Notes: generated by a model not told the origin, from the letters alone. Positions 3,594 through 46,589 are shown, numbered from the stretch's first letter. The stretch is DNA of 48,995 nt from Thermoplasmata archaeon (GCA_035283405.1 DATEUA010000073.1:1-48995); one strand, 5' to 3'. Translations and numbers: made by a program.

Positions 3594-3615
3594 GGGCGCG
3601 TCAAGGGACGCCGGG

Positions 3616-4119: not shown

Positions 4120-4147
4120 GGGGCGTCCAACGCGCAAGGACGCATGG

Positions 4148-4155: not shown

Positions 4156-4187
4156 CCACGCCCCGCTCGGCCCTGGTGGGAAGCTCC

Positions 4188-16634: not shown

Positions 16635-17370
16635 CTGGGAGGGCCTGCCGCCGCTCCCGCCGCATCTGTCGACGCACGTCCTCCGGGAGAGTTGCCGGGA
16701 GAACCTCGTCGTAGGCGTAGCGATAGACGATCGTGGCGAAGCCAAGGGCCGTGAGGATCGACACGAGGCCCCAGACGTATTCGATGCTGGGCACCAGCTG
16801 GGAAGGCAGGAGAAACGCTGCGTGGGCGTAGCGGACGCCGACGGCTCGCGCCACGGGCCGCAACATTTGCCCGCGCGACGCGCCGAGGCCGATGAACGAG
16901 CCGGTCGTCGCGTTAACAAGGCTGAGGCCCAAAGAGATCAGCGCGAGCGGGACGATCACACCCGGAAGGAGAAAATCCTGGCCCCCCCAGACGGCGGAGG
17001 CCACGACCGCGGTGGACGCGGCCCCGACACCCAGGGGCACTCCATAGAACGTCGTATCGAAGCGCCCTTGGTAGCTTCGCCGATTCAGATACACGAGTTT
17101 GAAGAGTTCCTCAAAGAGGAGCACCACGGCGAGCACGAGGAGGGACCCGGCGAGATTGCTCCGCGGCAGGAGGACGTTCAGGGCGCTTGCGAAAACGCCG
17201 AAGACCATCCCGACCGCGAGGGAACTAAAGACGCGTCGGTCGTCGAAGAGGCTCTTCGAGACGTGCGGGCGGTCGAATCGGCGCAAGGACACCCAGAGGA
17301 CCGCCAGGGCCGGGCCGATGCCCAGCAGGAGCGCGCCGAAATAGTCGATCTGGGACACTCCATCCGCCAT
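16624..17370 (-). CDS. Polytopic membrane protein, PrsW/CPBP-like intramembrane protease candidate
   Basis: About 7 hydrophobic helices. There is an EExxK motif (LLFEELFKLVY) inside a TM helix and a later conserved His (RYAHAAF). Confidence 0.5.
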   Translation of the reverse strand: MADGVSQIDYFGALLLGIGPALAVLWVSLRRFDRPHVSKSLFDDRRVFSSLAVGMVFGVFASALNVLLPRSNLAGSLLVLAVVLLFEELFKLVYLNRRSYQGRFDTTFYGVPLGVGAASTAVVASAVWGGQDFLLPGVIVPLALISLGLSLVNATTGSFIGLGASRGQMLRPVARAVGVRYAHAAFLLPSQLVPSIEYVWGLVSILTALGFATIVYRYAYDEVLPATLPEDVRRQMRRERRQALPVKE

Positions 17371-22700: not shown

Positions 22701-25196
22701 CGAAACTCCCTGGAGAACGACGTTGTGGGCGAAGGGGGACGGCAGGCTGCTAAAATCGCTCGTCTTGACGAGGATCGCACCCGACTCGATCATCTCCAGG
22801 ACCTCACGGGCGTGCCGGAGGTCCATCACCTGGTGGAGGATCTCCTGATACGTCTCCTTGACGACCGGGAAGTCCTCGATCTGGTGGACCCAGTCGAGGA
22901 CCCGCTGGGACCTCAGCTGCTGTCGCCCGATCGAGACCTCACGGCCCTTGTAGTTCCGAAGGATCATGAAGGAGCGGGTCGCGCAATGCCGGAACCGCTG
23001 CTTGAACAGCTCCGTGCCGCGCACCGCACGTCGCAGGAGGTCCTCGAGTCGATCGCTCGAGACGAGTCGGACGAGGCCGTCGACGTCAATCCGCTTCGGG
23101 ATCGTGAGCATGAAGTTGTCGTCCGTCACGCTCACGCGGACATTCGTGTGGTGTTTCTCCGTGACCGCAAACGCGTATGCACGGCTCAGGGCGTCGTTCA
23201 CCCGCCGGCCGAAGGGGAAGTGGAAAATCACGTTCCGGCTCCCCTTCACGTCGATGTACCCTTCGATCAGGACCGCGCGGTCCGTCGGGAGGTCCGGAAT
23301 CACGGCGCGCTGCTCCTGGACGTACGACACGAGGGACTGGGCGGACCCCGTGTCCACCCGGTAGTCCGACATGAGCCACGCCCGGACCGCCGTCTCCCCG
23401 TCCCGGTCGATCCGGGAGGCGAGCTCGCGACGGAACACCCCGACCGCCACGGACAGGTCGAACGAGCGGGGGAGCATTTCGCCGGTCCACGACGGCACGG
23501 TGGGCCTCCGTCCGGAGGCGTCCTTCACGTAGACCGTCGTGCCGCGCACGCGAACGAACTGGTACGTCCGGCCGCCGAGTACGAAGACATCGTTTGGGCT
23601 CAGGTACTCCACGAACTTCTCGCTCAGCTCGCCCAGGGGCGAACCCCGCTCCGAGTAGACGTGGTACGTGCCCTCCTCCGGGATTGTCCCCACGTTCGTG
23701 AAGTAGATCATCCGGGTTCCCTTCTTCTTCCCGAAGCGGCTCTCCTCCTCGTCGAACCAGATCTTCGCGAAGACTTTGATGTCCGGGTTCCTCGAAGACA
23801 GGTAATCGAGGACGCTCCGGAAGTCCTTCTTCGTGAGGTCGTGAAACGAATACGATCGACGCACGAGGTTGTACGCCTCGTCGACCTCCCACCGTTTCTC
23901 GAGGGACATCCCGACGAGGGCTTGGGCGAGGACGTCCAAGGTGTTCGTCGGAATGTCCACGCGGTCGATGCGGGCATCGTACGCCGCCTTCGCGAGCGTG
24001 GAGCACTCCACGAGGTCCCAGGGTTCGAAGACGATCATGCGACCCTTCGCCGTCTCCCCGTACGCGTGGCCGGCTCGCCCGATCCGCTGGAGCCCCTTCG
24101 CGACGGATTTCGGGGAACCGATCTGGACGACGAGGTCAATGTACCCGATGTCGATGCCCAGCTCGAGGGAGGTCGATGAGACGGCCGCCTTGAGGCGTCC
24201 GCTCTTCAGCTTCTCCTCGACATCGAGACGGGTGGCCTTCGAGAGGGACCCATGGTGGGCCTCCAGGTCCTCCACGCCCCGTTCCTTCAGCTTGAACGAG
24301 ACCTGCTCCGTCCCGCTTCGGGTGTTCGTGAAGATGAGCGTCGTCCGGTGCGTGTCGATCAGGTCGCTCAGGAGGTCGTACATCTTTGCGTTCGCGACCT
24401 CCATCGGCACGGCGGTCATGTCCCGGACGGGGCTCAGGACGGCCAGGTCCAGCGATTTCCGCGTGTCGACCTCGACGATGTACATGTCGCGGACCTTGCC
24501 GTTCTCGAAGCCGCCGAGGAACTTCGCCTCCTCCTCGATCGGCGCGATGGTGGCGCTCAGGCCGATCCGGACGAACTCGCGCGACACCTGCTCCCGGAGC
24601 CGCTCGAGGCTCACGCTCAACAGCGCGCCTCGCTTCGAGGAACAAACCTCGTGAATCTCGTCCACGATGACCCAGTCGACGTCCGCAAAGTGTTCGCGGA
24701 ACTTCGGGGTGCTGAGGATGATCGCGAGGCTCTCCGGGGTGGTGATCAGGATGTGAGGGGGCCGGCGCGCCTGTCTCTGGCGTTCCTGCGCGGACGTGTC
24801 GCCGGATCGGACGCCCACCCGGATCAAGGGAGGCGGCTTGCCCTCCCTCGTGGCGAGTTCCGTCATCTCGCGGAGGGGCTCCTCGAGATTTCGATTGATG
24901 TCGTTCGCGAGGGCCTTCAGCGGCGACACATAGACACAGTAGATGCGTTCCTCGAGTTCCCCCCGGAGCTGGGTCGCGTACAGTTCGTTGATGATCGACA
25001 GGAAAGCGGTGAGGGTCTTGCCACTCCCCGTGGGGGACGACACGAGCACGTTTTTCCGTGCGTGGATGAGAGGCACCGCATAGGCCTGCGGCTCCGTAAG
25101 GCCCTGAAACTTCCCTCCGAACCAATCCCGGACGAGGGGCTCCATGAGGCCGAGGACTTCGTCCTTCGTTGCGGCGTGGCGGACTTTACGTAGCAT
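19788..25196 (-). CDS. lhr: Lhr-family ATP-dependent helicase, unusually long (1802 aa) with a C-terminal winged-helix/AlkZ-like extension
   Basis: SF2 motifs SSPTGSGKT (I), VIVDEIHE (II), LSAT (III) and QRIGRAGH (VI). The Lhr-core WH and domain-4 region runs to about aa 860. A further ~940 uninterrupted residues follow. Confidence 0.9.
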   Translation of the reverse strand: MLRKVRHAATKDEVLGLMEPLVRDWFGGKFQGLTEPQAYAVPLIHARKNVLVSSPTGSGKTLTAFLSIINELYATQLRGELEERIYCVYVSPLKALANDINRNLEEPLREMTELATREGKPPPLIRVGVRSGDTSAQERQRQARRPPHILITTPESLAIILSTPKFREHFADVDWVIVDEIHEVCSSKRGALLSVSLERLREQVSREFVRIGLSATIAPIEEEAKFLGGFENGKVRDMYIVEVDTRKSLDLAVLSPVRDMTAVPMEVANAKMYDLLSDLIDTHRTTLIFTNTRSGTEQVSFKLKERGVEDLEAHHGSLSKATRLDVEEKLKSGRLKAAVSSTSLELGIDIGYIDLVVQIGSPKSVAKGLQRIGRAGHAYGETAKGRMIVFEPWDLVECSTLAKAAYDARIDRVDIPTNTLDVLAQALVGMSLEKRWEVDEAYNLVRRSYSFHDLTKKDFRSVLDYLSSRNPDIKVFAKIWFDEEESRFGKKKGTRMIYFTNVGTIPEEGTYHVYSERGSPLGELSEKFVEYLSPNDVFVLGGRTYQFVRVRGTTVYVKDASGRRPTVPSWTGEMLPRSFDLSVAVGVFRRELASRIDRDGETAVRAWLMSDYRVDTGSAQSLVSYVQEQRAVIPDLPTDRAVLIEGYIDVKGSRNVIFHFPFGRRVNDALSRAYAFAVTEKHHTNVRVSVTDDNFMLTIPKRIDVDGLVRLVSSDRLEDLLRRAVRGTELFKQRFRHCATRSFMILRNYKGREVSIGRQQLRSQRVLDWVHQIEDFPVVKETYQEILHQVMDLRHAREVLEMIESGAILVKTSDFSSLPSPFAHNVVLQGVSDLVLMEDRSALLRELHRQVLKRVMPEDQISKIQFQEDDIREYFRKKIPKVARKADLLAYLDRVGDANLLQQKGRSPFEVTSASFAEIRAWSGELMDEGLVESVWTPKGIHWALRDRVPQYVAVYAQKSRLRPPEEKVLDLVRGKPRTHKELVRASKLEKGGLNEALRKLERAYLVGRCGVLETTYFARDPARGNFEEALDVLLAKRLEADGPQTAQELAVAMDLEVELVEEALRDLEAEGTVSSGHFLVGEEFQYILSRDLKRLQRRDETREVFEEAQVKAFLLAKQFREIRTIDDYFDRFLETGWGFDLWNHTSAFDYEDWIRRRASGDILEGRFLNGRVRYVRANDAPLFLAAFPRRKLSEFEGAVLGAIRAGDGMDLYAIAAKVRDERERVKEALETLDDDVYVIRKYQGDGWTSRNRYLVYDPPEAPPDAVETLVLRFLAAHGPVTFAGIREWARFEWETLQTLLESLEERGVVVRVLVTGKSEGEMYVLHKDLPKLRQSSPEAGRDRTRVLSLLDPWTQPLWAQIASRYGEGWFYPLVKDGELAGVAEIWEMSGCVEVRELDLTAPDLLDDAIGALARMMEFYALRGLDVLRVTRVLGKPIPEIEDIGPWTRAGFVRLGDFLAHGPIVPRDFDPEALLAVVLHRQGIALESRFPDAVAASLALGGLRSDFAARLRVRDFVPLDRLHRRGLLAKGLGIPRYWSYASEEDLRLFRAAKATKLTKDMKSLFSRIQEDGPISRPRLLALSDLGQTGAAAALRKLYEGSYVTRDADNRYRAVSDAKIGRDDARREVLRRIVRSLGVASAEALAHATLFEYSMAEIRQLLRSFEAEGWLAKGFLARGERTVLWAMKEALESLDTVSFHRAFVLTPQDNLFLYVREQVAKTFHMGSCYVVFDGPRMVAAFKAKRRKTEFVITEFQGDASARRIVDGWEQENEIDVGEHVDRISDQEVMDWYAKMYGRKAAEE

Positions 25197-28538: not shown

Positions 28539-28665
28539 GTGGGGGGAACGCAGCAATCCGGAAAAAGGCTTCTTCGCACCGCGGAAAACCTCGAGGTCGC
28601 GGAGGGTGGCGCATCACCGAGCCGGGGTCGAGGAGACCGCTCAGGCAAGGTGGTCTCGCAGATCA

Positions 28666-28738
28666 CGGGCACGTGGGGATTTGAACCCCAGTCGGAGGCT
28701 CCGAAGGCCTCTAGCCTAGTCCACTAGCCTACGTGCCC
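28666..28738 (-). tRNA. tRNA-Arg (anticodon UCG), 73 nt, no intron, CCA not encoded
   Basis: Manual cloverleaf. Acceptor GGGCACG/CGUGCCC (7 bp); D arm GGCU-AGUGGACUA-GGCU (G-U, G-C, C-G, U-G); anticodon arm GAGGC-CUUCGGA-GCCUC. Variable loop CGAC; T arm UGGGG-UUCAAAU-CCCCA; discriminator G. Confidence 0.85.
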
Positions 28739-28760
28739 GGCGGCCGAACCGCCCGCCGTG

Positions 28761-28768
28761 ATAAAAGG
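28761..28768 (-). promoter_or_regulatory. TATA box upstream of tRNA-Arg
   Basis: Minus strand reads CCTTTTAT, 23-30 nt upstream of the mature tRNA 5' end. Confidence 0.55.
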
Positions 28769-28840
28769 GTTCTCCGAACGAGTCACGTCGAACACCAAGC
28801 CTTTTCACCGGCGTCGCGGTTCCGAAGCCGGTCTGTTTCA

Positions 28841-29305
28841 ATGAAGTGGGTTACGAGGGAACGAGCGAAGGTGGACCGGATCGCGTGCCCGTGGCTCATC
28901 ACGAAGTTCGTCGATCCCCAGGCGGAGTTCCTCTTCGTGCCCCCCGAAAAGGTGCTCGAGGTCGCGGCGCGAGACGGGGCAGTTCCCTTCGACGCGCCAG
29001 GGGTCGACCTGACGCACTACCAGGAAGAGGACGAGGAGCGGGTCAGCTTCGACGCGATCATCCGCAAGTACGGTCTGAGCGATCCCGCGCTGCTGGACCT
29101 CGCAGAGATCGTCCGCACGGCGGATGCCAAGGAAGGGCCCCACCCGAGGCCGGAAGGTGCCGGTTTGGCGGCCGCGGCCCTCGGCTTCCGGGAGATTGCC
29201 CGCGACGACCGGGAGAACATGCGCCTCCAGTTCCCACTGTACGACGCGCTCTACGCGTACTGCGGGGGGAAGGTGGGTCGCCGCGACGTGCACCGGAGCG
29301 GATGA
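28841..29305 (+). CDS. ChrB C-terminal-domain-like (chromate resistance domain) protein
   Basis: MKWVTRERAKVDRIACPWLITKFVDPQAEFLFVP matches the remembered signature of the Chrome_Resist domain. Start at ATG 28841. Confidence 0.65.
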   Translation: MKWVTRERAKVDRIACPWLITKFVDPQAEFLFVPPEKVLEVAARDGAVPFDAPGVDLTHYQEEDEERVSFDAIIRKYGLSDPALLDLAEIVRTADAKEGPHPRPEGAGLAAAALGFREIARDDRENMRLQFPLYDALYAYCGGKVGRRDVHRSG

Positions 29306-35829: not shown

Positions 35830-36276
35830 TTAAGCCTTCGCCGCCGCGGATGGGATCGGGAATCCCATCGAGGCCATGCGGGAGAGAACCTCTCGGAGTT
35901 TGTCGGAACAGTACTCGTCGTCCGTAATCTTCTCGAAGACCCCCGCGCTCAGGAACATGATTTCGGAACGGTCGAACAGTTCCATGTACGGGACCATGAC
36001 GAGCCGGAGGACGCCCTGGCCGCCCGATGCGTAGATCTGGGCCTCCGCCCCGACGCGCTTGCCCGCCTTCATCAAGGACCCGAAGGGCACGAACTTGCTC
36101 ACCGCGTAGGCCTTCGCCTTGCTGCCGAGGACGGCCTTGTGCACGAAGGCTGTGCCGGTCCACTCGCGCTTCCGTATGTCGAACCCCGACTCGACGAGGG
36201 CTTTCTCATAGGCTCCAAGGATGTCTTGGGGTGTGCGGCCTGGGAAGACGAGTTGGGCGGTTGCGCCGGACGTCAT
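35830..36276 (-). CDS. Hypothetical protein (148 aa), no family recognised
   Basis: MTSGATAQLVFPGRTPQDILGAYEKALVESGFDI... Its ATG overlaps the mutY stop as ATGA (36273-36276). The third codon position is GC-rich. Confidence 0.55.
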   Translation of the reverse strand: MTSGATAQLVFPGRTPQDILGAYEKALVESGFDIRKREWTGTAFVHKAVLGSKAKAYAVSKFVPFGSLMKAGKRVGAEAQIYASGGQGVLRLVMVPYMELFDRSEIMFLSAGVFEKITDDEYCSDKLREVLSRMASMGFPIPSAAAKA

Positions 36277-37430
36277 ACGAATCGACCACGAACCGATCCG
36301 TGCCGGGATGAAAGATCGCCTCCCAGAATCGCGGATGATACGTTCGTTCGGCCCGGCCCACCAGGGGATCCGAGAGCGTCGAGGACCTTCCGTTGGAATG
36401 GAACGAGCGGGAGGACGCGGATTTCTTCGGCGCGGAACCATGTGGCGCCCGCGGTCGGATCGGCGCCACCCCGCGGGATGCATTTGTAGATGGCGCCCGA
36501 CCATTTCCGGTGGGAGAACGCGTGGACGATACGCGTCCCCGTGTCCTCCACGTCCACGTCCAGCCCCGTCTGATCGCGAATGAGGAGTCGAATCGCGTCC
36601 CGGGGGCTCGCGTCCGTCCCGATCTCACCTCCGGGGAGAGACCACAGACCTCCCAGAAGTCCGCTGCGGGCCCGCCTGACGAGGAGGACGCGCCCTCTGT
36701 CGGCGAGGACGCCGAAGGCGACGGGCACCGTCCGGACGTTTCGGGGACGAGGACGTCGAGGGAGGGAGGTTTGGATCCCGGCCTTCCGGGCGAGACACAG
36801 TTGAGAGAGGGGGCAGACGCCGCACGAGGGGGACGTGGGCGTGCACACGGTCGCGCCGAGTTCCATGAGCGCCTGGTTGAAAACGCCGGGGCTCGAGCGC
36901 GGCACGAGGCTCGACGCGGCCTTCCATAGCCGTTCGCGACCTCCTCTCTTCGCGACGGGTTCTTCGATACGGTACAGCCGTGAGAGCACGCGGGTGACGT
37001 TCCCGTCGATAGCCGGGACACGACGTCCGAATGCGATGCTCGCGACGGCCCCGGAGGTGTACGGCCCGACCCCGGGAAGACCACGGAGGCTTTCGGCCGT
37101 CGTCGGAATGTGGCCTCCATGATGCGCCACGATAGCCCGAGCCGCCGCGTACAGGTTCCGTGCGCGTCCGTAGAACCCGAGACCCTCCCAGGCCCGCAGG
37201 ACTTGGTCTTCGGACGCATTCGCCAGCGCTTCAAGATCAGGGAATTGCTCGATGAATCGCTCATAGTATGGGATACCGGAGGCCACGCGGGTCCTTTGGA
37301 GCAGGTACTCGGAGACGAGAATCCGATAGGGATTGCGGGTGCGGCGCCAGGGGAGATCCCGGCGCCTCGCGTCGAACCAGCGGAGAAGGTTCCGGCGGAC
37401 CTCGCGCGGCGCTGGCGGTCCCACACGCAT
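36273..37430 (-). CDS. mutY: A/G-specific adenine DNA glycosylase MutY (HhH-GPD, 4Fe-4S and NUDIX-like C-terminal domain)
   Basis: LLRWFDARRRDLPWR, PYRILVSEYLLQRT, LPGVGPYTSGAV, IDGNVTRV and the cluster loop CTPTSPSCGVCPLSQLC. The C-terminal GLWSLPGGE is the NUDIX-like domain. Start at ATG 37430. Confidence 0.9.
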   Translation of the reverse strand: MRVGPPAPREVRRNLLRWFDARRRDLPWRRTRNPYRILVSEYLLQRTRVASGIPYYERFIEQFPDLEALANASEDQVLRAWEGLGFYGRARNLYAAARAIVAHHGGHIPTTAESLRGLPGVGPYTSGAVASIAFGRRVPAIDGNVTRVLSRLYRIEEPVAKRGGRERLWKAASSLVPRSSPGVFNQALMELGATVCTPTSPSCGVCPLSQLCLARKAGIQTSLPRRPRPRNVRTVPVAFGVLADRGRVLLVRRARSGLLGGLWSLPGGEIGTDASPRDAIRLLIRDQTGLDVDVEDTGTRIVHAFSHRKWSGAIYKCIPRGGADPTAGATWFRAEEIRVLPLVPFQRKVLDALGSPGGPGRTNVSSAILGGDLSSRHGSVRGRFV

Positions 37431-37494
37431 CGAAAGCGGACCTGCATACTTAACGCCCCGCAACGTTATCCACCGGCCACGCCCTCCCACGCGT

Positions 37495-37947
37495 GTGCTC
37501 GGCCCCGTCGTCGTCGCCGTAGGGATTCTCACCTCGGGCCTCCGGGTTCTCGTGGTCCGCCGACCCGATGACGGCCCTGTTCCCGAGCAGTGGGAGTTTC
37601 CGGGAGGGAAGGTCGAGTTCGGCGAACACCCCTGGAACGCCCTCCGTCGCGAACTCTGGGAGGAACTGTCCCTGCGAGTCGCCCGAGGCACCCTCTACGG
37701 AGTCTATTCCCACATGTACGACATCCGAGGGGGACGCGCGCATTACGTGCTCGTGGCCTACCGGATGCAGGTCGCGCGCCACCGTGTGCCGGAAACGGAC
37801 CGCGTCCGGTGGGTCCGGTTGGCGGACCTACCGCGTTGGTCGCTGATTCCCGGATCGAGGCCGATCGTCGCGGACCTCGCGCGTCGCCGCTCCGCCGGAT
37901 CACTTGAAGATCTCGCCGGTCTCCCGGCTCCAGAAGAGAAGGTCTAG
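37495..37947 (+). CDS. MutT-like NUDIX hydrolase ((deoxy)nucleoside triphosphate pyrophosphohydrolase)
   Basis: WEFPGGKVEFGEHPWNALRRELWEELSL is the NUDIX box in the MutT arrangement. GTG start at 37495; the ORF opens at 37333. Confidence 0.75.
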   Translation: MLGPVVVAVGILTSGLRVLVVRRPDDGPVPEQWEFPGGKVEFGEHPWNALRRELWEELSLRVARGTLYGVYSHMYDIRGGRAHYVLVAYRMQVARHRVPETDRVRWVRLADLPRWSLIPGSRPIVADLARRRSAGSLEDLAGLPAPEEKV

Positions 37948-38562
37948 GGCTCCCAACGGAATTCCGACCGTCGCGGCAAACGCTCGCATCCGAGTCTCGA
38001 TGGCGAGGTATCGACGCGGCGTGAGGGAGGTCGGCAAGCGCCGGATGACCCCGTGCCGCACAAGGTTCCGGAGCACGTGTCGATCCAGGATCGCGAGGTC
38101 CTCGCCACGTCCGATGTTTCGGAGGAAGTGGCTCGCCTCCTTGAACCCGAATCCGTCGATCTCCGAGACCAGCCAGGCGCGTGCGTCCTGCGAGGAGGGG
38201 GACCGATTGAGGGCCGCACGGAGCTTCGGCGTTCCGTCCGGGAAGAAGCGGCGGCGCGCCCGCACGATGTACCCCGCCTTGTGATTGTGAAAGCGCACCC
38301 GGTGCCTCAGGTGGCGGGCGAGGGTTCGTTCGTCCCCCGTCCACAGGTCGCCTCCGGCAACGATGCCCCGCAGCGCCGCATCGCTCGCGCGAGCCTTCGT
38401 CTGAATCGCCAGGAGGCAGAAACACAGCTCCTCGAAGAGTGCGGCGTCCGGCATCCGGCCGATTCGTCGGAAATGGGCGAGGCGCACCCTGATTCGGTCC
38501 TTCTTTCGCCGGAACTCCCGGCGCAGGCCCTCGAGATCTCGATAGCGGGGTGGGGCGGTCAT
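37900..38562 (-). CDS. ogg: 8-oxoguanine DNA glycosylase/AP lyase, archaeal Ogg2 type
   Basis: LCFCLLAIQT, HNHKAGYIV and GFGFKEASHFLRNIGRGEDLAILDRHVL (HhH with catalytic Lys and Asp). Start ATG 38562 overlaps the pepA stop as ATGA. Confidence 0.85.
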   Translation of the reverse strand: MTAPPRYRDLEGLRREFRRKKDRIRVRLAHFRRIGRMPDAALFEELCFCLLAIQTKARASDAALRGIVAGGDLWTGDERTLARHLRHRVRFHNHKAGYIVRARRRFFPDGTPKLRAALNRSPSSQDARAWLVSEIDGFGFKEASHFLRNIGRGEDLAILDRHVLRNLVRHGVIRRLPTSLTPRRYLAIETRMRAFAATVGIPLGALDLLFWSRETGEIFK

Positions 38563-40088
38563 CCCGAGCGCTTCCAGTCCCTCATCAGACGGACGAGGAG
38601 CCTCACGCCGAAGGCGGAAGCGCCCTTGGGCAGGTACTCCCGCTTCGGCGAATCGGGTGCGGCCTCGATCCAAGCGGGTCCGGCGATGTCGAGATGGGCC
38701 CACGGGTGGTCCCCCACAAATCGCTGGAGGAATTTCGCGGCGGTGATCGCTCCCGCGGAGCGGCCGCCGGTATTCTTCACGTCCGCGAAGTCGCTCCGGA
38801 TCTGCTCGTTGTAATCGTCCCAGAGAGGAAGCTCCCAGACACGCTCCGCCGTCGCCTCCGATGCGCGCGCGATGCGATCTCGAAGGGTCCCGTCGTTGCA
38901 GAACAACGCGCAGCCCATCCGACCGAGGGCGACCTTCGCCGCACCCGTAAGGGTCGCGACGTCTACCACCGCGGAGGGCTTCAGGGTCTTCGCGTATCCG
39001 AGGGCGTCCGCGAGGACGAGGCGCCCTTCCGCGTCCGGGTTGAGGACCTCGACGGTCTGTCCGCCGAACGTTCGCACGATGTCCCCGGGCTTCTGGGCGC
39101 GTCCGCTCGGCATGTTTTCTGTCAGTGGCGCGAGGGCCACCACGTTCACCGGAAGCTTCAGCCGAGCGGCCGCCAACACGGCGCTCAGGGCCACCGCGGC
39201 GCCGGACATGTCGTAGCGCATGATCCACATCGGATCCGTGCCGGGAGCCTCGAGAGGCTTCAGAGCGATGCCCCCGGAGTCGAATGTGATCCCCTTGCCA
39301 GCGAGGACGATGGGCTTCGCTTTCCCGCCGCCCGCATGTTCCAGCACGAGGAAGCGGGGCGGCTCCTCGCTTCCCCTCGCCACGCCCAGGAGGGCTCCGA
39401 AACCCATCCGCTCAAGCTGCTTCTCGTCGTACACGGTCAGCTTCAGGCCGGCTTCCCTCGCCGCGGTGCGAACCTTCTCGGTGAAGAGGACCGGCGTCTT
39501 CGCATTGCTCGGGGCGTTGATCAAATCGCGGGCAAAGTTCACGCTCGTCGAGACGACGGAGCCCCGCTGAACGGCATCCCGGATCGTACTCGCTCGCGCC
39601 TTCTCAAGGGTGACGATCGTCATCGCATCGATGCGATTCGCTGCGGGTTCCGTCTTGTGTTCAACGTATCGGTAGACCCCGAGGAGGACGCCCTCTACGA
39701 GGGCTTCCGCGGTGTCTTCCAGCTCGAGGCGCCCGACGCCTGCCCCGTGCACGATGGTCGAGAACGTCTTGAGACCCCTCTCCCGAACACGGATCGCCGC
39801 GCAGGCGGACACCTCCCGGACCCGGTCGAGGGAGAAGTCCTCACGCCTCCCCAGGCCGACGACCATCACGCGGTTCGCGGGGATGTGGTCGAACGTCGGA
39901 AACACGGTGACGTCTTTGAACCCGCCCGAGACGTCGCCCGTTTCGATCATCGCGGTGATCTGACGACCCATGGCCGCGTCGACGGCGCCCGTCGCGCCGC
40001 CCGGGTGGGCGACCCCTTCGAACAGATTCACGACGATGACTTCGTCCTCCCACCGAGCGATGTCGCCGACCTCCACGCTAATCCGCAT
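38559..40088 (-). CDS. pepA: Leucyl aminopeptidase (M17)
   Basis: GKGITFDSGG, MRYDMSGAA, NPDAEGRLVLADAL and ATLTGA. Start at ATG 40088. Confidence 0.9.
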   Translation of the reverse strand: MRISVEVGDIARWEDEVIVVNLFEGVAHPGGATGAVDAAMGRQITAMIETGDVSGGFKDVTVFPTFDHIPANRVMVVGLGRREDFSLDRVREVSACAAIRVRERGLKTFSTIVHGAGVGRLELEDTAEALVEGVLLGVYRYVEHKTEPAANRIDAMTIVTLEKARASTIRDAVQRGSVVSTSVNFARDLINAPSNAKTPVLFTEKVRTAAREAGLKLTVYDEKQLERMGFGALLGVARGSEEPPRFLVLEHAGGGKAKPIVLAGKGITFDSGGIALKPLEAPGTDPMWIMRYDMSGAAVALSAVLAAARLKLPVNVVALAPLTENMPSGRAQKPGDIVRTFGGQTVEVLNPDAEGRLVLADALGYAKTLKPSAVVDVATLTGAAKVALGRMGCALFCNDGTLRDRIARASEATAERVWELPLWDDYNEQIRSDFADVKNTGGRSAGAITAAKFLQRFVGDHPWAHLDIAGPAWIEAAPDSPKREYLPKGASAFGVRLLVRLMRDWKRSG

Positions 40089-40139
40089 TCGAATCCCGAA
40101 CGCGAGTTGCGCGGCTTCGCATAAGCCATTCGATGGGCG

Positions 40140-40160
40140 TCGAGTCCGAACCGGACTCGA
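40140..40160. promoter_or_regulatory. Perfect 9-bp inverted repeat upstream of the sodN TATA (candidate operator)
   Basis: TCGAGTCCG-aac-CGGACTCGA, 23 nt upstream of the TATA at 40183. Confidence 0.35.
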
Positions 40161-40182
40161 GCAGATCGCGCCCGGCCACACG

Positions 40183-40190
40183 TTTAAATA
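40183..40190 (+). promoter_or_regulatory. TATA box upstream of sodN
   Basis: TTTAAATA ends 23 nt before the ATG at 40214, spacing typical of a leaderless mRNA. Confidence 0.6.
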
Positions 40191-40213
40191 CGCTCAGGGT
40201 TGTGGCCGCATCC

Positions 40214-40735
40214 ATGTCGCTACTCCATGCACTGCTCCGGGCTTCCGACCGCATGGTCCCTGCACGCATCGCATACGCCCACTGCGACATTCCGTGCGGG
40301 ATCTACGACCCGCACCACGCGCAGATGGCGGCGCACACCGTCATCCGAATGAACATGCTGATCAAGGAACTCCAGAAGCCTTCGGCGGGCGATTCACGCG
40401 AGAAGCATGAGGAATATCACCACAAGCTCGACCGGTACGCCCTGGTGAAGGAGCAGCACGCGGAACTCGCGAAACACGAGGTGCGCATCCTGTGGGGCGA
40501 CTACTTCAAGCCGGAGCACGCCCAGAAGTATCCGGAGCTCCACGACCTCGTCTGGAGAGCCCTGAAGGCCGGCTCGAAGGCGCGGCAGGAAATCAACCTG
40601 CAGGCCGCGGAGGACCTCCTGAAGACAACGAACGAAATCGCCCGGATCTTCTGGGACACGAAGGGTCTGCCGACGCTCAAGGTGAAGGCGCCCTACCCGA
40701 CGGACCGGGAACTCGTCGTCCCGAAGCTCGGCTGA
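40214..40735 (+). CDS. sodN: Nickel-containing superoxide dismutase precursor
   Basis: A 22-aa leader is followed by the Ni-hook HCDIPCGIYDP. KEQHAELAKHEVRILWGDYFKPEHAQKYPELHDLV closely parallels the Streptomyces SodN block. IFWDTK is near the C-terminus. Confidence 0.9.
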   Translation: MSLLHALLRASDRMVPARIAYAHCDIPCGIYDPHHAQMAAHTVIRMNMLIKELQKPSAGDSREKHEEYHHKLDRYALVKEQHAELAKHEVRILWGDYFKPEHAQKYPELHDLVWRALKAGSKARQEINLQAAEDLLKTTNEIARIFWDTKGLPTLKVKAPYPTDRELVVPKLG

Positions 40736-40741
40736 TTCGCC

Positions 40742-41053
40742 GTGGGATTCCTCCCAATCTCCCGGTTCCGCATCGAAGACGACTCGATGCGACCCGCGCT
40801 TGAACCCGGTGCTTACGTCCTCGTGAACACGTGGGCGTACGCGTTCGGCGGGCCGGCGCCGGGAGACCTTGTCGTCGTGCGGAGCCCCGAGGACCGAGCG
40901 CGGTTCCTCGTGAAGCGCGTGGCGTCCGTGATGGCGTCGGGCGATGTCCTCGTAATGGGCGATAACGCGGAGCGGAGTCGGGACAGCCGGCATTTCGGGC
41001 TTGTGCCGCGACGACTTGTCGTTGGACGGGTCTTCGCGCGGCCGAAGCCGTGA
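40742..41053 (+). CDS. sodX: S26-family peptidase, NiSOD maturation protease SodX type
   Basis: DDSMRPAL (nucleophile Ser), LVKRV (general-base Lys) and GDNAERSRDSRHFG. It is 103 aa and lies 6 nt after sodN. Confidence 0.8.
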   Translation: MGFLPISRFRIEDDSMRPALEPGAYVLVNTWAYAFGGPAPGDLVVVRSPEDRARFLVKRVASVMASGDVLVMGDNAERSRDSRHFGLVPRRLVVGRVFARPKP

Positions 41054-41065
41054 TGCCTCGCGACC

Positions 41066-41860
41066 TCAGTCCCATTTCTCGAACCGTACGTGACTGAAGC
41101 CGAGATTCTGGCAGAGGGCCTTGACCTGCTCGACCATGTCGTGCAGACCGCAGATGTAGACCTGCTTCGAGGCATGGTCGTGAATCTCCTCTTGCAGGAT
41201 CTTCTGCACGTAGCCCACGCGGCCCTTCCACTCCGGGGTCTCAGGCCGCGAAATTGTCGGGTAGAAGTGGAAGTTCGGGTGCTGCTTCGCCCACCCCTCG
41301 AAGATGTCACGGTAAATCAGGTCGTACACGTACCGGACGCCGAAGACGACGTAGAAGTCGAGGCCGTCGTCCAGGTTGTTCTTCCAGACGTGGTCAAGCA
41401 TGGAGACGAAGGGCGCAACCCCCGTGCCCGTGGCCACGAATACGGTGTCGCAGCGGATGGGTTCGGGGACGACGAAACGGCCGAGAGGGCCGATCGAGGG
41501 CAGCTTGGTCCCGGGGGTGACGTGGTGGAGATAGTTTGACATGAATCCGCCCTCCACGACCTTGATGCAAAGCTCGAGGTGCTCCTTGGTGTCGGGCGAG
41601 GAGGCGATCGAGTACGGCCTCGAGATCCGCTTGCCGTCCTTCTCCGCAAAGATCGAGATGAACTGTCCAGGTTCGAAGTCGAAGACGGGTTCGTTCTCGA
41701 ACGCGAACCGGATCAGGTATGTCTCGGGATATTTCGGGGTGATGTCAAAGACTTCCTTCACGACCGCCGTGTGTCTCCCCGAGCGAAACTTGACGGGCGG
41801 CTCCTGTAACGCGGCCTTCTGCGCCGAAGGACCCTTCGCAGGAACCGACTCCCGCATCAT
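41066..41860 (-). CDS. FNR-family FAD/NAD(P)-binding oxidoreductase
   Basis: RPYSIASSP (RxYS FAD motif), GPLGRF and VFVATGTGVAPF (NAD(P) motif). No Fe-S domain is present. Confidence 0.8.
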   Translation of the reverse strand: MMRESVPAKGPSAQKAALQEPPVKFRSGRHTAVVKEVFDITPKYPETYLIRFAFENEPVFDFEPGQFISIFAEKDGKRISRPYSIASSPDTKEHLELCIKVVEGGFMSNYLHHVTPGTKLPSIGPLGRFVVPEPIRCDTVFVATGTGVAPFVSMLDHVWKNNLDDGLDFYVVFGVRYVYDLIYRDIFEGWAKQHPNFHFYPTISRPETPEWKGRVGYVQKILQEEIHDHASKQVYICGLHDMVEQVKALCQNLGFSHVRFEKWD

Positions 41861-41947
41861 GCGCGGTTCGGCACCATGGGCTTCGATTTAAACGTTTCTT
41901 CAAGGTTATGCGTACGCCCTCATTCACGGGTTCGAGAACGATCTCAC

Positions 41948-42628
41948 TTACGGTTTCGCGGAGGGCTCGAGGAGCACCCGGCCGTACACGAGTCCCGCAA
42001 TCAGGCCGCCCGCGAGAGGGCCGATCCAGTAGACGAACCAATTGTCGAAAAGCCCCGCGACGACCCCGGGTCCGAACCACCGCGCCGGATTCATGGCGGC
42101 TCCGGTGAGAGGGCCTCCCATCATGATGTCGAGGGCGACCGTGAACCCGATGGCGAGGCCTCCGACCGCGCGGAACGCGCCCTTCGGATCGATTGCGGTC
42201 CCGTACACGACGAAGACGAGGAAGAACGTGAGCACCGCTTCGACCAGGATCGCCGGGCCGATCCCCACGCCGGGCGAGACCTGCGGCGTCCCGAGGGACG
42301 TGGACCGCCATTCCCCGGACGGGAACACCCCGAGCAGGGCCGATGCCGCTACGAGACCTCCGAGGAGCTGCGCGATCCAGTATACGACGGAAAGACGCAA
42401 ACTGATCTGCCGGCCCACGAGCGCACCGAACGTCACGGCCGGATTGAAGTGTCCACCTGAGATGTGCGCGGTCGCCGAGGCCATCACGCCGATCGTGAGG
42501 CCGTGCGCAAGGGCGACGAGCAACAGATCCGGACGGTCCCGCGTCGATATGATCGCGCCCGCGCCGACGAAGACGAGGGCGAACGCACCGACGAATTCGG
42601 CGATCGCCTTCCGGAGCGTGTCCGCCAT
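41948..42628 (-). CDS. MIP-family channel (aquaporin/aquaglyceroporin)
   Basis: Two NPA boxes, HFNPAVTFG and AMNPARWFGP, in a 6-TM layout. Confidence 0.9.
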   Translation of the reverse strand: MADTLRKAIAEFVGAFALVFVGAGAIISTRDRPDLLLVALAHGLTIGVMASATAHISGGHFNPAVTFGALVGRQISLRLSVVYWIAQLLGGLVAASALLGVFPSGEWRSTSLGTPQVSPGVGIGPAILVEAVLTFFLVFVVYGTAIDPKGAFRAVGGLAIGFTVALDIMMGGPLTGAAMNPARWFGPGVVAGLFDNWFVYWIGPLAGGLIAGLVYGRVLLEPSAKP

Positions 42629-42701
42629 GGCCTCGTCTCCCCCAGGACGTCTGAGGGGGAGGTCGATATTAGTGCTTTCGTTTCGCGGCGAGACGTTCTC
42701 A

Positions 42702-43196
42702 TCACGCGAAATAGGATGCGGACCCGCGGTCGAATCCTTGGACGATTTCGAGGCTCAGCTCTCGAGGCTGCCATGCCGCCTCCGGGAACACGAGGTTCGG
42801 GAAGAATCGGTTGAAGTCCTCCGAGATCTGGGTGACGAGGTGGCTCGGCCCGAACAGCGTCTGGGCGATGCGGTGCGCCTGCCCTCGGCACGCGAGCTCG
42901 TCGACGAATCCGACGGAATGCAGGTACTCGTGAAGCAGCACGTAGAACGCGTAGTGCCGGTACAATTCGGGGTTCGTCTCCTCGATCCGGATGAGGGGCA
43001 CCTTGTTCATCACGATCACGTTGCTCGCGATCGGGTAGAACGCCCCGAGGAATCCCTGAGGGTGGTTACCCAGATCGGCGAGGGCGAGCATGAGGCCCGC
43101 CCGGCTCCGGCCCAGAACGGTTTCGACGGCCCGCTTCACGAGCTCGAAGACGTCCGCGAGGCCGCGTGCCATGTCCAGTTTGCGCAGGAAGTCCAC
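42702..43196 (-). CDS. Hypothetical protein with an HExxH motif (putative small metallopeptidase-like)
   Basis: YVLLHEYLHSVG. No family recognised beyond the motif. Confidence 0.5.
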   Translation of the reverse strand: MDFLRKLDMARGLADVFELVKRAVETVLGRSRAGLMLALADLGNHPQGFLGAFYPIASNVIVMNKVPLIRIEETNPELYRHYAFYVLLHEYLHSVGFVDELACRGQAHRIAQTLFGPSHLVTQISEDFNRFFPNLVFPEAAWQPRELSLEIVQGFDRGSASYFA

Positions 43197-43242
43197 GTGG
43201 AATCGACGGCGTCCGTCGGACTTAAGGGATTGCCCGTGGCTC

Positions 43243-43929
43243 TCACGTGCCGGGCGCGAGGAGGTTGATCCCCTCGAAGCCCAGGAACAGGAGGGTCGCG
43301 TAGGCGATGCTGAGGGACGCGACCGTGAGATTCACGACGCGGCGCACCCGGGCGGATCCCCAGCGAAGGATCGGATACGTCATCCCGACGCCGAAGACGA
43401 CCATCCCGAACACGACGCCGAGGCTGAACAGTCCGACCCCGCCCAAGAGGCCCGGCAGGGACGTGACGCTGAGGGACGCTACAAAGAGGACGAGCAGTTC
43501 ATCGTTGCTCGCGAGACCGTGTACGATTCCGATTCCGAACATGGTTCGGTGCTCGTTGGACCGCCCCACATGGACGTGCGCGTGCGCGTGCTCCTCCGCC
43601 TCGTGCCGGTGCGCGTGGCTGTGGAGGAACCCCAGCTCGTACAGGATTCCCAGCACTCCGATTGCCGCGAGCATGACCGCAACGGCAAGCTCGAAGTGCG
43701 CAAGGAACTGCGCGAGGAAGACGTCCCGGAAGACGAATAGCAGGATCGTGACGACCGTCGCCGTGATCATATGGCCTGCGGCCCAGCTCAGACTCATGAG
43801 GGACGTCTTGCGAAGGCTCCCGCTCCGCATCAGGAGGTTCGACACGGCGACGAGATGATCTGCGTCGTAGCTGTGCTTGAAGCCGAGCGCCAGGGAGAGC
43901 CCGACGAATAGGAACGGATCGAGTGCCAC
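43243..43929 (-). CDS. NicO/NiCoT-family nickel/cobalt transporter (6-TM short form)
   Basis: The GFKHSYDADHLVAVSN (HxxxDADH) signature, AAGHM, and the His-rich loop HSHAHRHEAEEHAHAHVHV. Start set at GTG 43929, preceded by GGAGG 7 nt upstream. The longer ORF to 44136 would overlap nikR. Confidence 0.75.
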   Translation of the reverse strand: MALDPFLFVGLSLALGFKHSYDADHLVAVSNLLMRSGSLRKTSLMSLSWAAGHMITATVVTILLFVFRDVFLAQFLAHFELAVAVMLAAIGVLGILYELGFLHSHAHRHEAEEHAHAHVHVGRSNEHRTMFGIGIVHGLASNDELLVLFVASLSVTSLPGLLGGVGLFSLGVVFGMVVFGVGMTYPILRWGSARVRRVVNLTVASLSIAYATLLFLGFEGINLLAPGT

Positions 43930-43961
43930 GGAATTCCTCCGCCCGAATGGGGCGCTGAGAA

Positions 43962-43989
43962 GTAACACGAACGCAGCAGGCGTAACACG
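43962..43989. repeat. Direct repeat GTAACACG x2 (20-bp register) in the nicO-nikR divergent intergenic region
   Basis: Copies at 43962-43969 and 43982-43989, between the transporter start (43929) and an AT patch (TTAAAC, ~43992). Candidate operator. Confidence 0.3.
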
Positions 43990-44051
43990 GCTTAAACATT
44001 CGGGGCCCCTTTGAAGACCCCGGTAGCACTTCCCTTCGACAGGGATAGCAC

Positions 44052-44459
44052 GTGACCGTCGAGAGGATTGGCGTTTCCCTGGAAGGACCGCTGTTGAAGG
44101 AGTTCGACCGACTCGTGAAGGAGGATGGTTATGCAAGCCGGTCGGAGGCTCTACGGGCTCTCGTCCGGCGCGCGCTCGCGCGCCGCCGCTTCGAGGCGGA
44201 CGGAGATGTCGTCGGGACCGTGACGATCGTGTACCGCCACGACGTCGGGATGGTCACGCACCGGGTCCTCCATCAACAGCACGATTTCCTCGGGACCATT
44301 CGAGCGACGGCGCACACGCACCTGAACGAGGAAACGTGCCTCGAGGTCCTGATTGTCGAGGGGAACGGACCAAGAATCCGGGATCTTGCAGACCGCTTGC
44401 GGAGCGTGAGAGGCGTTCTGTTCGCGGACCTCGTCGTCGCGGCGGCCGATCTCCCGTAG
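44052..44459 (+). CDS. nikR: Nickel-responsive regulator NikR (ribbon-helix-helix plus ACT-like metal-binding domain)
   Basis: RIGVSLEGPLLKEFDRLVKEDGYASRSEALRALVR (RHH). The C-terminal domain carries H..H ligands (VYRHD, HQQHD, AHTHL) and C (ETCLEV). Confidence 0.85.
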   Translation: MTVERIGVSLEGPLLKEFDRLVKEDGYASRSEALRALVRRALARRRFEADGDVVGTVTIVYRHDVGMVTHRVLHQQHDFLGTIRATAHTHLNEETCLEVLIVEGNGPRIRDLADRLRSVRGVLFADLVVAAADLP

Positions 44460-44540: not shown

Positions 44541-44966
44541 GTGACGAGGCAGCCCGTGACCTACGCCGCTCCCCGTCGGACGACCTCGGGCTGGCTCGCG
44601 AACAGCGCGGCCGTCCTTCTCATCGCGGCGGGCCTCCTCACGGTCGGGATTATCCTGACGTTGCTCGCTGCGCTCTCGTTTTTCATGTCGATGATCAACT
44701 TCGGTTTGAGCGGCGGCAACTTCGGGATTCTCGGGAGCTCCCTCACGACGGTAATCGTCGTCGGGGGCATCGGGGTCGCCCTGTCCTCGGCGGGCGGATT
44801 CTTGCTCCGCTTCTGGTGGATTTTCCTGCTCGTGGACGTCGCGCGGGGCTCGATCGGCGTCGACCGCAGCGCGCCGCCCGTCGAAGTGAAGGTCCGCTGC
44901 CGCAGCTGCGGGCGAATGAATCAGCCGGACGCGACCTACTGCATCACGTGCGGCCGTGCGATTTGA
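44541..44966 (+). CDS. Hypothetical membrane protein (3 TM helices) with a C-terminal Zn ribbon
   Basis: Hydrophobic helices, then CRSCGRMNQPDATYCITCG. GTG start. Confidence 0.55.
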   Translation: MTRQPVTYAAPRRTTSGWLANSAAVLLIAAGLLTVGIILTLLAALSFFMSMINFGLSGGNFGILGSSLTTVIVVGGIGVALSSAGGFLLRFWWIFLLVDVARGSIGVDRSAPPVEVKVRCRSCGRMNQPDATYCITCGRAI

Positions 44967-45011: not shown

Positions 45012-45851
45012 GTGGGACTCCTGATTCGATTCGCGCGACGATGGGTCGCAGGGGTGGAGATGAGCGACGCGCTGCGCGCGGCCCGAGCGGCGAACGCGCG
45101 CGGGATTCATGCCGTGGTGAACCATCTCGGCGAGCACCATCGCGAGAAATCCGCGGTCGAGGCATCCCTCCGCGAATATCTGGCCCTCCTCGGAGCGGTG
45201 CGGGCGGAGGGCATCCGGGGATGCGTGAGCGTCAAGCCGACACAACTCGGGATCCTCGTAGACCGCGAGTACGCCCTCTCGCGCTTCCTCGTCCTACTCG
45301 ATGCGGTGAGGGCCTCCGGCCAGAGACTCTGGCTGGACATGGAGGCCGCGTCGACCACGGACGACACCCTCTGGGTCTACGAGAACCTCCTCGAGAGATA
45401 CGACAACGTGGGCGTCTGCCTCCAAGCGAATCTGCGACGAACGGACAGGGACCTTGAGCGACTCGTGGCCCTCGGCGGGAAAATCCGGCTCACGAAAGGG
45501 GCCTATCCCGAGGGCCCAGACATCGCGTACCGCCGTCGCGACGACGTGGACCGCCGGTATCTCCGGTTTCTCGAGGCCCTTTTCAGATCGAGGGCGGATT
45601 TCGCCGTCGCAACCCACGACGGCCGGATGGTCGAACGGACCCTTGCACTCGCGGAGTCCTCCGATGCAAAGTTCGAATTCCAGATGCTCATGGGTGTGCG
45701 GGACGCCTTGATGACCGAGCTCGTGCGAAAGGGATTCCGGGTGTTGGAGTACATCCCGTACGGGCCGACATGGCTGCCGTACTTCCTCCGCCGACTCCGG
45801 GAGCGCCCCCGCAATGTGGTCACGCTGATGCGATCCCTCGTCGGCGGATAA
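45012..45851 (+). CDS. Proline dehydrogenase (monofunctional PRODH family)
   Basis: ARRWVAGVEMSDALRAARAANARGIHAVVNHLGE, SVKPTQLG, IRLTKGAY, FAVATHD and EFQMLMGV. GTG start with a short N-terminus. Confidence 0.8.
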   Translation: MGLLIRFARRWVAGVEMSDALRAARAANARGIHAVVNHLGEHHREKSAVEASLREYLALLGAVRAEGIRGCVSVKPTQLGILVDREYALSRFLVLLDAVRASGQRLWLDMEAASTTDDTLWVYENLLERYDNVGVCLQANLRRTDRDLERLVALGGKIRLTKGAYPEGPDIAYRRRDDVDRRYLRFLEALFRSRADFAVATHDGRMVERTLALAESSDAKFEFQMLMGVRDALMTELVRKGFRVLEYIPYGPTWLPYFLRRLRERPRNVVTLMRSLVGG

Positions 45852-45890: not shown

Positions 45891-46589
45891 GTGGATCGGC
45901 GCGCGTTCCGTCGATGCATGCACATCCTCGAGTCGCGTCACGAACCGGAAGACTGGTCCCGGGGCCTTACGCCGTTCGAAATCCTCGTGTCCACGGTCTT
46001 GTCGCAAAGCACCAACGTCGCGAACGAGCGACGGGGAATGGAGGGGCTGAGGACCGCGTTCGGTCGGATCACGCCCCAGGGGCTCGCAAGCCAGAAGACG
46101 AACGATCTTGCCCGCGCCATCTGGCACGCAGGCCTGTCGAACCGAAAAGCGTCTCGCATCCGCGCACTCGCGGGTCGCATCGCCGCGAGATCGGACGACC
46201 GCCTCCGCGATATTCTGCGACGGCCCACGAAAGAAGCGCGGGACCTCCTCCTGACGTTGCCTGGCGTCGGACTCAAGACGGCGGATGTCTTGCTCGCCAT
46301 GGCGGCGGACCGTCCCGTGTTTCCCGTGGACACCCATGTCGCCCGGATCGCGCGGCGTTGGGGCATCGTCCGCCCGGCCGACGGATATGAGGCGACCCGC
46401 GCGGGTCTCGAGAGGTGGACCCCCTTCGAGAAACGAGAGGCATGGCATCTCGGTCTGATCGCCCATGGGCGCACCCTGTGCAAGGCGGCGAACCCCGCAT
46501 GCGAACGTTGCGCCGTCTCCCGAGATTGCGACTGGTTCCAGGGCCGCGCGGCAAGGGCCGCCAAAAGGTTAAAGCGGTCGAACCGCTAG
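45891..46589 (+). CDS. nth: Endonuclease III (HhH-GPD with a 4Fe-4S loop)
   Basis: FEILVSTVLSQSTN, LPGVGLKTADVLL, PVDTHVARI and CKAANPACERCAVSRDC. Start is GTG 45891 or ATG 45918. Confidence 0.85.
   Translation: MDRRAFRRCMHILESRHEPEDWSRGLTPFEILVSTVLSQSTNVANERRGMEGLRTAFGRITPQGLASQKTNDLARAIWHAGLSNRKASRIRALAGRIAARSDDRLRDILRRPTKEARDLLLTLPGVGLKTADVLLAMAADRPVFPVDTHVARIARRWGIVRPADGYEATRAGLERWTPFEKREAWHLGLIAHGRTLCKAANPACERCAVSRDCDWFQGRAARAAKRLKRSNR

Follow-up and report, generated by a model that had tools for sequence, protein, structure and literature searches.

A predicted nickel superoxide dismutase locus with a permease-nikR pair nearby in a Thermoplasmata archaeon

The sodN-sodX pair and its promoter

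We analysed a contig of 48,995 nucleotides (nt) from a Thermoplasmata archaeon (GCA_035283405.1 DATEUA010000073.1:1-48995; hereafter the window), in which sodN (40214-40735, + strand), the gene for a nickel superoxide dismutase (NiSOD), is followed by sodX (40742-41053, +), the gene for its predicted maturation protease. A permease gene (43243-43929, -) lies nearby and is divergent from nikR (44052-44459, +). An earlier note, made from the sequence alone, had read positions 40089-44459 as a NiSOD system with a nickel transporter and NikR in an archaeal genome. All the sequence features it listed were found where it had placed them, and the NiSOD system, with a nickel permease and NikR some 2-3 kb from sodN-sodX, was confirmed. 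The window has a G+C content of 66% and is archaeal in content, with genes for RadA (Rad51 plus HHH_5), Trm5/TYW2, a diphthine-synthase-like methylase, a pyruvoyl arginine decarboxylase and an archaeal Ogg glycosylase, in line with the earlier description of the surrounding housekeeping genes. Genes were picked by the signature GC3 > GC1 > GC2 (G+C content by codon position) together with the gene calls on near-identical public contigs. Since the same gene order recurs at 99-100% identity in three independent ENA assemblies, and the synteny is common to more than 20 further species, the window is not chimeric, which removes the earlier worry about a mis-binned bacterial contig.

The product of sodN is a precursor of 173 residues, in which a 22-residue leader, MSLLHALLRASDRMVPARIAYA, ends in AYA and is followed by the Ni-hook HCDIPCGIYDP. 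The protein scored far above the cut-offs of both the NCBIfam equivalog TIGR02753 (162.9 bits, cut-off 90) and Pfam PF09055 (147.4 bits, cut-off 25; E=4e-43), a significant match to the NiSOD family by either profile. In an alignment with mature NiSOD of Streptomyces coelicolor (1T6U/1T6I, E ~1e-25), residue 23 falls on His1, and residues 23-31, HCDIPCGIY, on positions 1-9 of 1T6U; the precursor therefore has a leader of 22 residues, as first proposed from the position of the hook. The hook is kept in 77 of 82 SodN relatives.

Upstream of sodN, the sequence ACGTTTAAATA (40180..40190, +) ends approximately 24 nt before the ATG. In more than 20 orthologous sodN loci, the motif CACGTTTAAATA recurs at a constant position, with its end 24 nt upstream of the ATG, and we assign it as the archaeal promoter of sodN, composed of a B recognition element and a TATA element (BRE/TATA). 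Because the position of this promoter fixes the start, sodN begins at ATG 40214 and not at the upstream ATG 40133, and the short distance from promoter to ATG suggests that the sodN mRNA is leaderless or nearly so. Within the window, the exact 10-mer ACGTTTAAAT has two copies only, one at sodN and one at 41886-41895, the latter 27 nt before the gene for an FNR-like flavoprotein.

Starting 6 nt past the sodN stop codon, sodX encodes a soluble S26 Ser/Lys peptidase of 103 residues. An assignment originally made from its size and motifs was upheld by a score of 70.7 bits against TIGR02754 (cut-off 63.25) and a match to PF10502 (E=2.8e-22), and the translation shows Ser (DDSMRP), Lys (VKRV) and GDN boxes. 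Homologues of SodX are named 'nickel-type superoxide dismutase maturation protease' by NCBI/JGI, and the predicted role of SodX is to cleave off the SodN leader behind AYA. Among GTDB species representatives, 577 stretches encode a SodN relative. Related loci carry numbers from L001 on, and sodX stands beside sodN in 60 of 80 related loci. The three ENA contigs (L001-L003) have an intact sodX at 10529-10840 (tblastn identity 99%) where no gene is called; public metagenome annotation under-calls this small gene with its GTG start.

The permease-nikR pair and its predicted operators

The permease comprises 228 residues; a longer, TTG-started open reading frame that extends to 44136 overlaps nikR and is unused in relatives. 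Hydropathy analysis revealed six hydrophobic segments, corresponding to six helices, in place of the eight of the NiCoT architecture. The motif KHSYDADH (H-X4-DH) lies in transmembrane helix 1 and HGLASNDE in helix 4, and the loop between helices 3 and 4 is rich in histidine (9 His in residues 99-128). In an alignment of 25 permease homologues (A1), ALGFKHxxDADHxxAVSN (helix 1) and HGxASNDE (helix 4) are invariant, alongside SWAxGHM (helix 2) and the His-rich loop. A tblastn search of plasmids identified as the best annotated relatives the gene right after ureABCEFGD on a Bacillus plasmid and a gene in a hyp cluster of Runella, a 'urease accessory protein' encoded between a TonB receptor and ExbB. 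Profile comparison of A1 by hhalign gave 99.7% with the Bacillus gene (E=4e-25, 212 columns), 98.8% with the Runella gene and 96.4% with the NicO-like permease of L018, where the UreH reference is positional, that is, the gene at the ureH position rather than a curated UreH model or Bacillus TB-90 UreH. UreH/SodT nickel permeases have six helices with a His-rich loop between helices 3 and 4 (PMC4284471), and UreH genes are known beside sodN (PMC2667541). On the strength of the profile matches to ureH-position genes and of the six-helix, His-loop architecture, we file the permease as a UreH/SodT-type six-helix nickel permease, a distant relative within the NicO superfamily.

The label of a NicO/NiCoT-type permease, given earlier from the KHSYDADH motif and the His-rich loop, was accordingly rejected as a family assignment and holds at the superfamily level only: both features are present, but the match to Pfam NicO (PF03824; 17.5-18.9 bits, gathering score 27.7) is below threshold and covers only the N-terminal half of the model. 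A sequence search of the PDB gave nothing beyond SLC30A1, whose His-rich match (E=0.12) is put down to chance. The direction of transport had been left open; our provisional answer, drawn from the UreH-type profile matches and the predicted NikR operator at the promoter, is that the permease most likely carries Ni(II) inward.

NikR is a protein of 135 residues with a ribbon-helix-helix domain and a C-terminal Ni-binding domain. It passed the NF003381 cut-off (133 bits, cut-off 105) and matched PF08753 (E=1.6e-23), and its best PDB match was NikR of Pyrococcus horikoshii (2BJ1, E=5e-30, full length), with which the metal ligands QH, HxH (HTH) and C are aligned. The divergent pairing of a NikR with the permease thus stands as originally described, and the Ni ligands are kept.

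The 122-bp spacer between the two genes reads, on the permease strand and from the nikR start, GTGCTAT-N15-GTGCTAC-N34 (with TTTAAG)-GTGTTAC-N13-GTGTTAC-N31-GTG, the final GTG being the permease start. Predicted NikR operator 1, the tandem GTGTTAC-N13-GTGTTAC (43962..43988, -), lies upstream of the permease start and 2 nt downstream of TTTAAG (43991-43996), the TATA-like element of the permease promoter, and is the sole match of its pattern in the window. Predicted operator 2, GTAGCAC-N15-ATAGCAC (44023..44051, +), abuts the GTG start of nikR. Three of the four GTARCAC heptamers in the 49-kb window fall inside this spacer. The boxes of operator 1 and their spacings are kept in L006, L010, L088 and L089, while the spacer sequences have diverged; the operator of L018 is the canonical inverted repeat GTGTTAC-N13-GTAACAC and that of L090 is GTGTTAC-N14-GTAATAC. 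Directly before the nikR start, GTARCAC-N14/15-GTARCAC is found in L006, L010, L018, L027, L088 and L089. The published NikR consensus is GTGTTAC-[N13/14]-GTAACAC, in which the orientation of the half-sites can flip (Rodionov et al. 2004, PMC545781); the L018 arrangement matches this consensus, and the window matches its half-site and spacing. The outer GT...AC of the GTGTTAC heptamer is itself palindromic, which may explain why a tandem arrangement is tolerated.

Boxes directly downstream of a TATA element occupy the usual position of an archaeal repressor. Since the boxes sit in this position, we infer that Ni-loaded NikR would repress both the permease gene and nikR from these putative operators, with operator 2 likely providing autoregulation of nikR. 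A more far-reaching proposal is that NikR, bound to tandem GTGTTAC half-sites with four boxes flanking one TATA-like element, shuts the permease gene and nikR at once, and that the UreH-type permease is a dedicated nickel supply for the archaeal NiSOD. We offer this tentatively and consider it rather doubtful as a whole; if true, the predicted tandem operator would be a geometry undescribed for NikR.

Inheritance of sodN and its linkage to permease-nikR

A protein search with SodN returned 4446 homologues, and the names of the best 120 were inspected. The named ones among these are 'superoxide dismutase, Ni' of Thermoplasmata, Thermoplasmatota, Euryarchaeota RBG_16_68_13, Aenigmarchaeota, Thaumarchaeota and Micrarchaeota, and 73 of the best 80 GTDB loci are archaeal. 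In a neighbour-joining tree of about 150 columns, built without bootstrap support, the window SodN lies inside a monophyletic Thermoplasmata clade of approximately 26 sequences, with DPANN next and a few bacterial sequences interspersed. Searching related loci with the window proteins by tblastn revealed a conserved block, Ogg-[M17]-sodN-sodX><FNR-MIP-U164-[permease<>NikR]-ZnR-ProDH-EndoIII, of which a reduced form is present in a Thermoplasmata subclade that branches deeper (SodN identity 56%). Pairwise distances of SodN correlate with those of Ogg, ProDH, U164 and SodX (r=0.86-0.89) and of FNR and EndoIII (r=0.72-0.73), and in a Mantel test the observed value was reached in 0 of 2000 permutations for each of the six genes. 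The G+C content at third codon positions (GC3) of seven genes at the locus is within 0.6 standard deviations of the window's genes, and the tetranucleotide distance of 40089-44459 (z=1.8) is below that of the region of an Lhr-type helicase gene, so that neither test carries a compositional signal of recent horizontal transfer.

The clade, the synteny, the co-divergence, the native composition and the conserved archaeal promoter together indicate that sodN-sodX has been vertically inherited within this Thermoplasmata clade and was not recently acquired. The earlier note's 'probably horizontally acquired' therefore finds no support at the recent scale: synteny extends over some 26 species representatives, sodN is common and vertically inherited in the lineage, and the composition of 40.2-44.5 kb is native, not foreign. 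The supposed rarity of archaeal NiSOD likewise falls away, since it was already published in 2021 and close homologues are already named by NCBI/JGI. The searched text of Sutherland et al. (2021, bioRxiv 10.1101/2021.01.12.426412) reports NiSOD in 26 archaeal genomes with several interdomain transfers, and that of a study of Lutacidiplasmatales (PMC9287336) lists it for these archaea. One soil metagenome-assembled genome (EA_17) has two sodN loci on different contigs, L007 and L014.

The permease gene is about 2.2 kb from sodX, on the opposite strand and behind three unrelated genes. Permease and NikR occur together with sodN in the window, L006, L010, L088 and L089; the permease occurs without NikR in L016, L022, L040 and L087; NikR is accompanied by a different, NicO-like permease in L018 and L027; neither is present in L009, L011, L013, L014 and L021; and L090 has both, with sodN not nearby. 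The replacement permease at the nikR site is NicO-like, with 250 residues and the motif GLRHGVDWDHISAI (L018, 17054-17806, -; L027, ~16363-17100, -), so that the transporter was swapped while NikR and its boxes were kept. Because NikR pairs there with a different NicO-like permease, these two loci support a role of the site in nickel homeostasis. In L090, a TnpB/Cas12f-like gene (3323-4558) lies beside the NikR locus, and sodN-sodX is absent at the usual place.

These patterns indicate that permease-NikR is a variable accessory insert (an indel) in a conserved block. Since the pair is variable, the TATA-like elements are separate and sodN has no NikR box, sodN-sodX and permease-NikR are two neighbouring units and not one operon or regulon. 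The description of a 'self-sufficient module' was consequently overstated, the pair being missing, partial or replaced in many sodN-sodX relatives and, in L090, present without sodN nearby. By analogy with cyanobacterial sodT, it is plausible that the permease supplies nickel to NiSOD.

Beyond these two units, a gene for an M17 aminopeptidase (38559-40088, -) lies upstream of sodN. The FNR-like flavoprotein gene (41066-41860, -; PF00970 plus PF00175) is convergent with sodX, encodes an FAD/NAD(P) oxidoreductase of 264 residues from its own ACGTTTAAAT promoter, and is syntenic in most clade members. In Escherichia coli, the superoxide (SoxRS) response includes the ferredoxin-NADP reductase Fpr, and by this analogy it is conceivable that the FNR-like protein, which shares the ACGTTTAAAT promoter, is co-expressed with the superoxide dismutase. 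The next gene encodes a MIP/aquaporin channel of 226 residues (41948-42628, -; PF00230, E=1e-60), a conserved neighbour by synteny. Immediately downstream of the permease gene, and in relatives always between the permease (or ZnR) gene and the MIP gene, is the gene for U164, a conserved HExxH protein of 164 residues (42702-43196, -). U164 has an invariant HEYxH motif, is 78-82% identical in relatives and is more conserved across species than SodN; its family numbers 349 representatives at 50% clustering, and it has no match in Pfam or NCBIfam. AlphaFold2 gave a mean confidence (pLDDT) of 92 from an alignment, while the single-sequence model (pLDDT 50) was useless, and a Foldseek search of the PDB with the U164 model found no significant fold (best E=0.06), with weak hints of the minimal zincins selecase, YbeY and TTHA0227/Zincin_1. 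An operon of permease, U164, MIP and FNR genes under NikR was considered and probably does not exist: U164, FNR and MIP genes each have their own TATA-like element and persist without the permease. Downstream of nikR follow genes for a small membrane zinc-ribbon protein (ZnR; 44541-44966, +), a proline dehydrogenase (ProDH; 45012-45851, +) and endonuclease III (EndoIII; 45891-46589, +).

Several genes associated with oxidative damage surround sodN, namely a MutY-like HhH-GPD+NUDIX_4 gene, the archaeal Ogg gene, the endonuclease III gene and genes for a NUDIX hydrolase and a hemerythrin (36206-38562, -; 45891-46589, +; 3616-4137, -; 13208-13720, -). In addition, L018 and L027 carry inserts of KatG and CrcB, the catalase-peroxidase KatG gene lying between FNR and MIP. 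This grouping could reflect a loose oxidative-stress neighbourhood or plain synteny. Elsewhere in the window, a fusion protein of 1802 residues joins an Lhr-type helicase (DEAD, Helicase_C, WH_Lhr, DEAD_assoc) to an AlkZ-like DNA glycosylase domain (19788-25196, -), and its region has the most deviant tetranucleotide composition of the window (z up to 2.6). A gene for a ChrB C-terminal domain protein of the chromate-resistance regulator family (28733-29305, +) adjoins tRNA-Arg(TCG) (28665-28739).

Proposed scheme, alternatives and comparison with known systems

Taken together, our results suggest, with a probability that we put at roughly 0.8, that the locus encodes a resident nickel-dependent superoxide defence of a high-G+C Thermoplasmata archaeon, with a NikR-controlled importer nearby. 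In the scheme we propose, a strong archaeal BRE/TATA promoter of its own would drive sodN, together with sodX, probably as a leaderless mRNA. Soluble SodX would cut the 173-residue precursor after Ala22 (AYA|HCD), freeing His1, and the N-terminal hook HCDIPCGIY so exposed would bind nickel to give active NiSOD. Nickel would enter most likely via the six-helix UreH/SodT-type permease. Once loaded with nickel, NikR would bind the GTGTTAC half-sites, 13 nt apart and just downstream of the TATA-like element, and shut the permease promoter, while the second pair of boxes at the nikR start would provide autoregulation. The permease-NikR pair would be linked to sodN only loosely, as an accessory insert in the same block.

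A number of observations weigh against a resident defence with a NikR-controlled importer. In the window and four related loci, the half-sites of operator 1 repeat in tandem and are not inverted, unlike the geometry that is classical for a symmetric NikR tetramer. No NikR box was found upstream of sodN, nor any other site in the window within three mismatches. The NCBIfam scan of the permease returned no match, its Pfam NicO score is below threshold, and the SodN tree lacks bootstrap values. Many relatives keep sodN-sodX without permease or NikR, and L090 has the pair without sodN nearby, so that the permease may serve other nickel enzymes. These last two points lead to the view that adjacency reflects conserved gene order only, with a permease that supplies nickel to other enzymes and is not specifically tied to NiSOD. 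Between the two parts stand three unrelated genes; strand and promoter differ as well, sodN has no NikR box, and the presence of permease-NikR is variable among sodN relatives. Synteny extends to the entire block, with Ogg, ProDH and EndoIII in it, which leaves the neighbourhood by itself with little functional weight. However, this permease subfamily lies within about 3-5 kb of sodN in 9 of 10 distinct non-window loci (the exception being L090), marine cyanobacteria have a member of the same family, SodT, linked to sodN-sodX (PMC4284471), and no other nickel enzyme was seen among the genes annotated in the window. We therefore see mere adjacency as possible, though not as the likelier account.

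A different objection concerns the permease itself, which might be an RcnA-like nickel/cobalt exporter, making the locus a nickel-resistance determinant and not a supply line. RcnA, an exporter that also has a His-rich loop, belongs to the NicO superfamily, a membership with which the loop of the window permease and its weak NicO/DsbD_2 matches would fit, and a few permease homologues are named 'RcnA' by JGI. We nevertheless judge export improbable. Over its full length, the permease profile is matched best by ureH-position genes, which lie in urease clusters and in hydrogenase-maturation/TonB uptake clusters, and H-X4-DH in helix 1 is the established NiCoT/UreH uptake signature. The NikR boxes are placed where binding would repress the permease promoter, and an exporter shut at high nickel would be counter-productive; the known and predicted targets of NikR in the literature consulted are uptake systems (PMC545781). 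The notion that sodN-sodX, permease and NikR form a recently acquired bacterial island fares worse still. In its favour, phylogenies show interdomain NiSOD transfers at deep levels, as far as the searched text of bioRxiv 10.1101/2021.01.12.426412 goes, the nearest relatives include bacterial sequences (Dehalococcoidia, Candidate Phyla Radiation, one Gammaproteobacterium and one Acidoferrum), and the G+C content at 40-45 kb is slightly lower (0.60-0.64 versus ~0.66). Against this, the insertion site and flanks are the same in about 26 species representatives and in the second, deeper Thermoplasmata subclade, SodN co-diverges with the flanking genes, GC3 and tetranucleotide values are in the window's normal range, and the archaeal TATA promoter of sodN is conserved. 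Recent transfer is thus very unlikely and largely refuted, whereas the clade's ancestor may have been the recipient of an ancient transfer.

With respect to its significance, the locus settles no open question and would not surprise a specialist: its genes are each of kinds already described or automatically annotated, and archaeal NiSOD has already been published. Archaea are usually described as having Fe/Mn superoxide dismutase or superoxide reductase, and a view restricted to these enzymes is outdated. Thermoplasmata of soils and aquifers, as well as DPANN lineages, widely carry NiSOD and its protease and pass them on stably. The statement made in 2009 that UreH-type nickel permeases and SodN are absent from archaea (PMC2667541) is similarly outdated. 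In addition, the locus offers a compact case of archaeal nickel homeostasis, with NikR, a predicted operator and a UreH-type importer. What may be new is an archaeal UreH-type permease placed under NikR, together with the tandem-box predicted operator and the conserved HExxH protein U164.

The closest biochemical counterpart is the NiSOD-SodX system of Streptomyces coelicolor and S. seoulensis (1T6U, 1Q0D). As in that system, the hook HCDxPCGxY begins at His1, the central helices read KEQxAELAKHxVxxLWxDYFKPxHxxKYPELHxLV, the leader is cut after a small residue (a prediction for the window protein), and an S26 Ser/Lys protease is encoded next door. Unlike the Streptomyces enzyme, the window SodN has about 13 residues inserted behind helix 1 and about 23 more at its C-terminal end; its leader has 22 residues, compared with 14 in Streptomyces, and its promoter is archaeal. 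Streptomyces sodN is under Nur/Fur-type control (PMC3919588), which is not evident at the window locus. The sodT-sodN-sodX clusters of marine Synechococcus and Prochlorococcus resemble the window in having, near sodN-sodX, a six-helix UreH-type permease with a His-rich loop (SodT by description), and cyanobacterial SodT, of the UreH family, is presumed to supply nickel to NiSOD (PMC4284471). In contrast to the cyanobacterial gene, the window permease gene is 2.2 kb away, on the other strand, paired with nikR and dispensable in many relatives.

Among archaea, the NiSOD of Sutherland et al. 2021 and of Lutacidiplasmatales (PMC9287336) agrees with the window in that sodN occurs in archaea, including Thermoplasmatota, with the same NCBI/JGI annotation. 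As far as their searched text shows, these earlier reports put the emphasis on interdomain transfer, with no mention of SodX, transporters or NikR, whereas the window locus appears vertical in its local history and is described here together with its nickel-supply neighbourhood. Finally, the predicted operators resemble those of known NikR regulons (Rodionov et al. 2004, PMC545781) in their heptamer, in their spacing of 13-14 nt and in their position at the promoter of a nickel uptake gene beside nikR. They differ from those regulons in that the half-sites are in tandem in the window and four further loci, and in that four boxes flank one shared TATA-like element in a divergent archaeal promoter.

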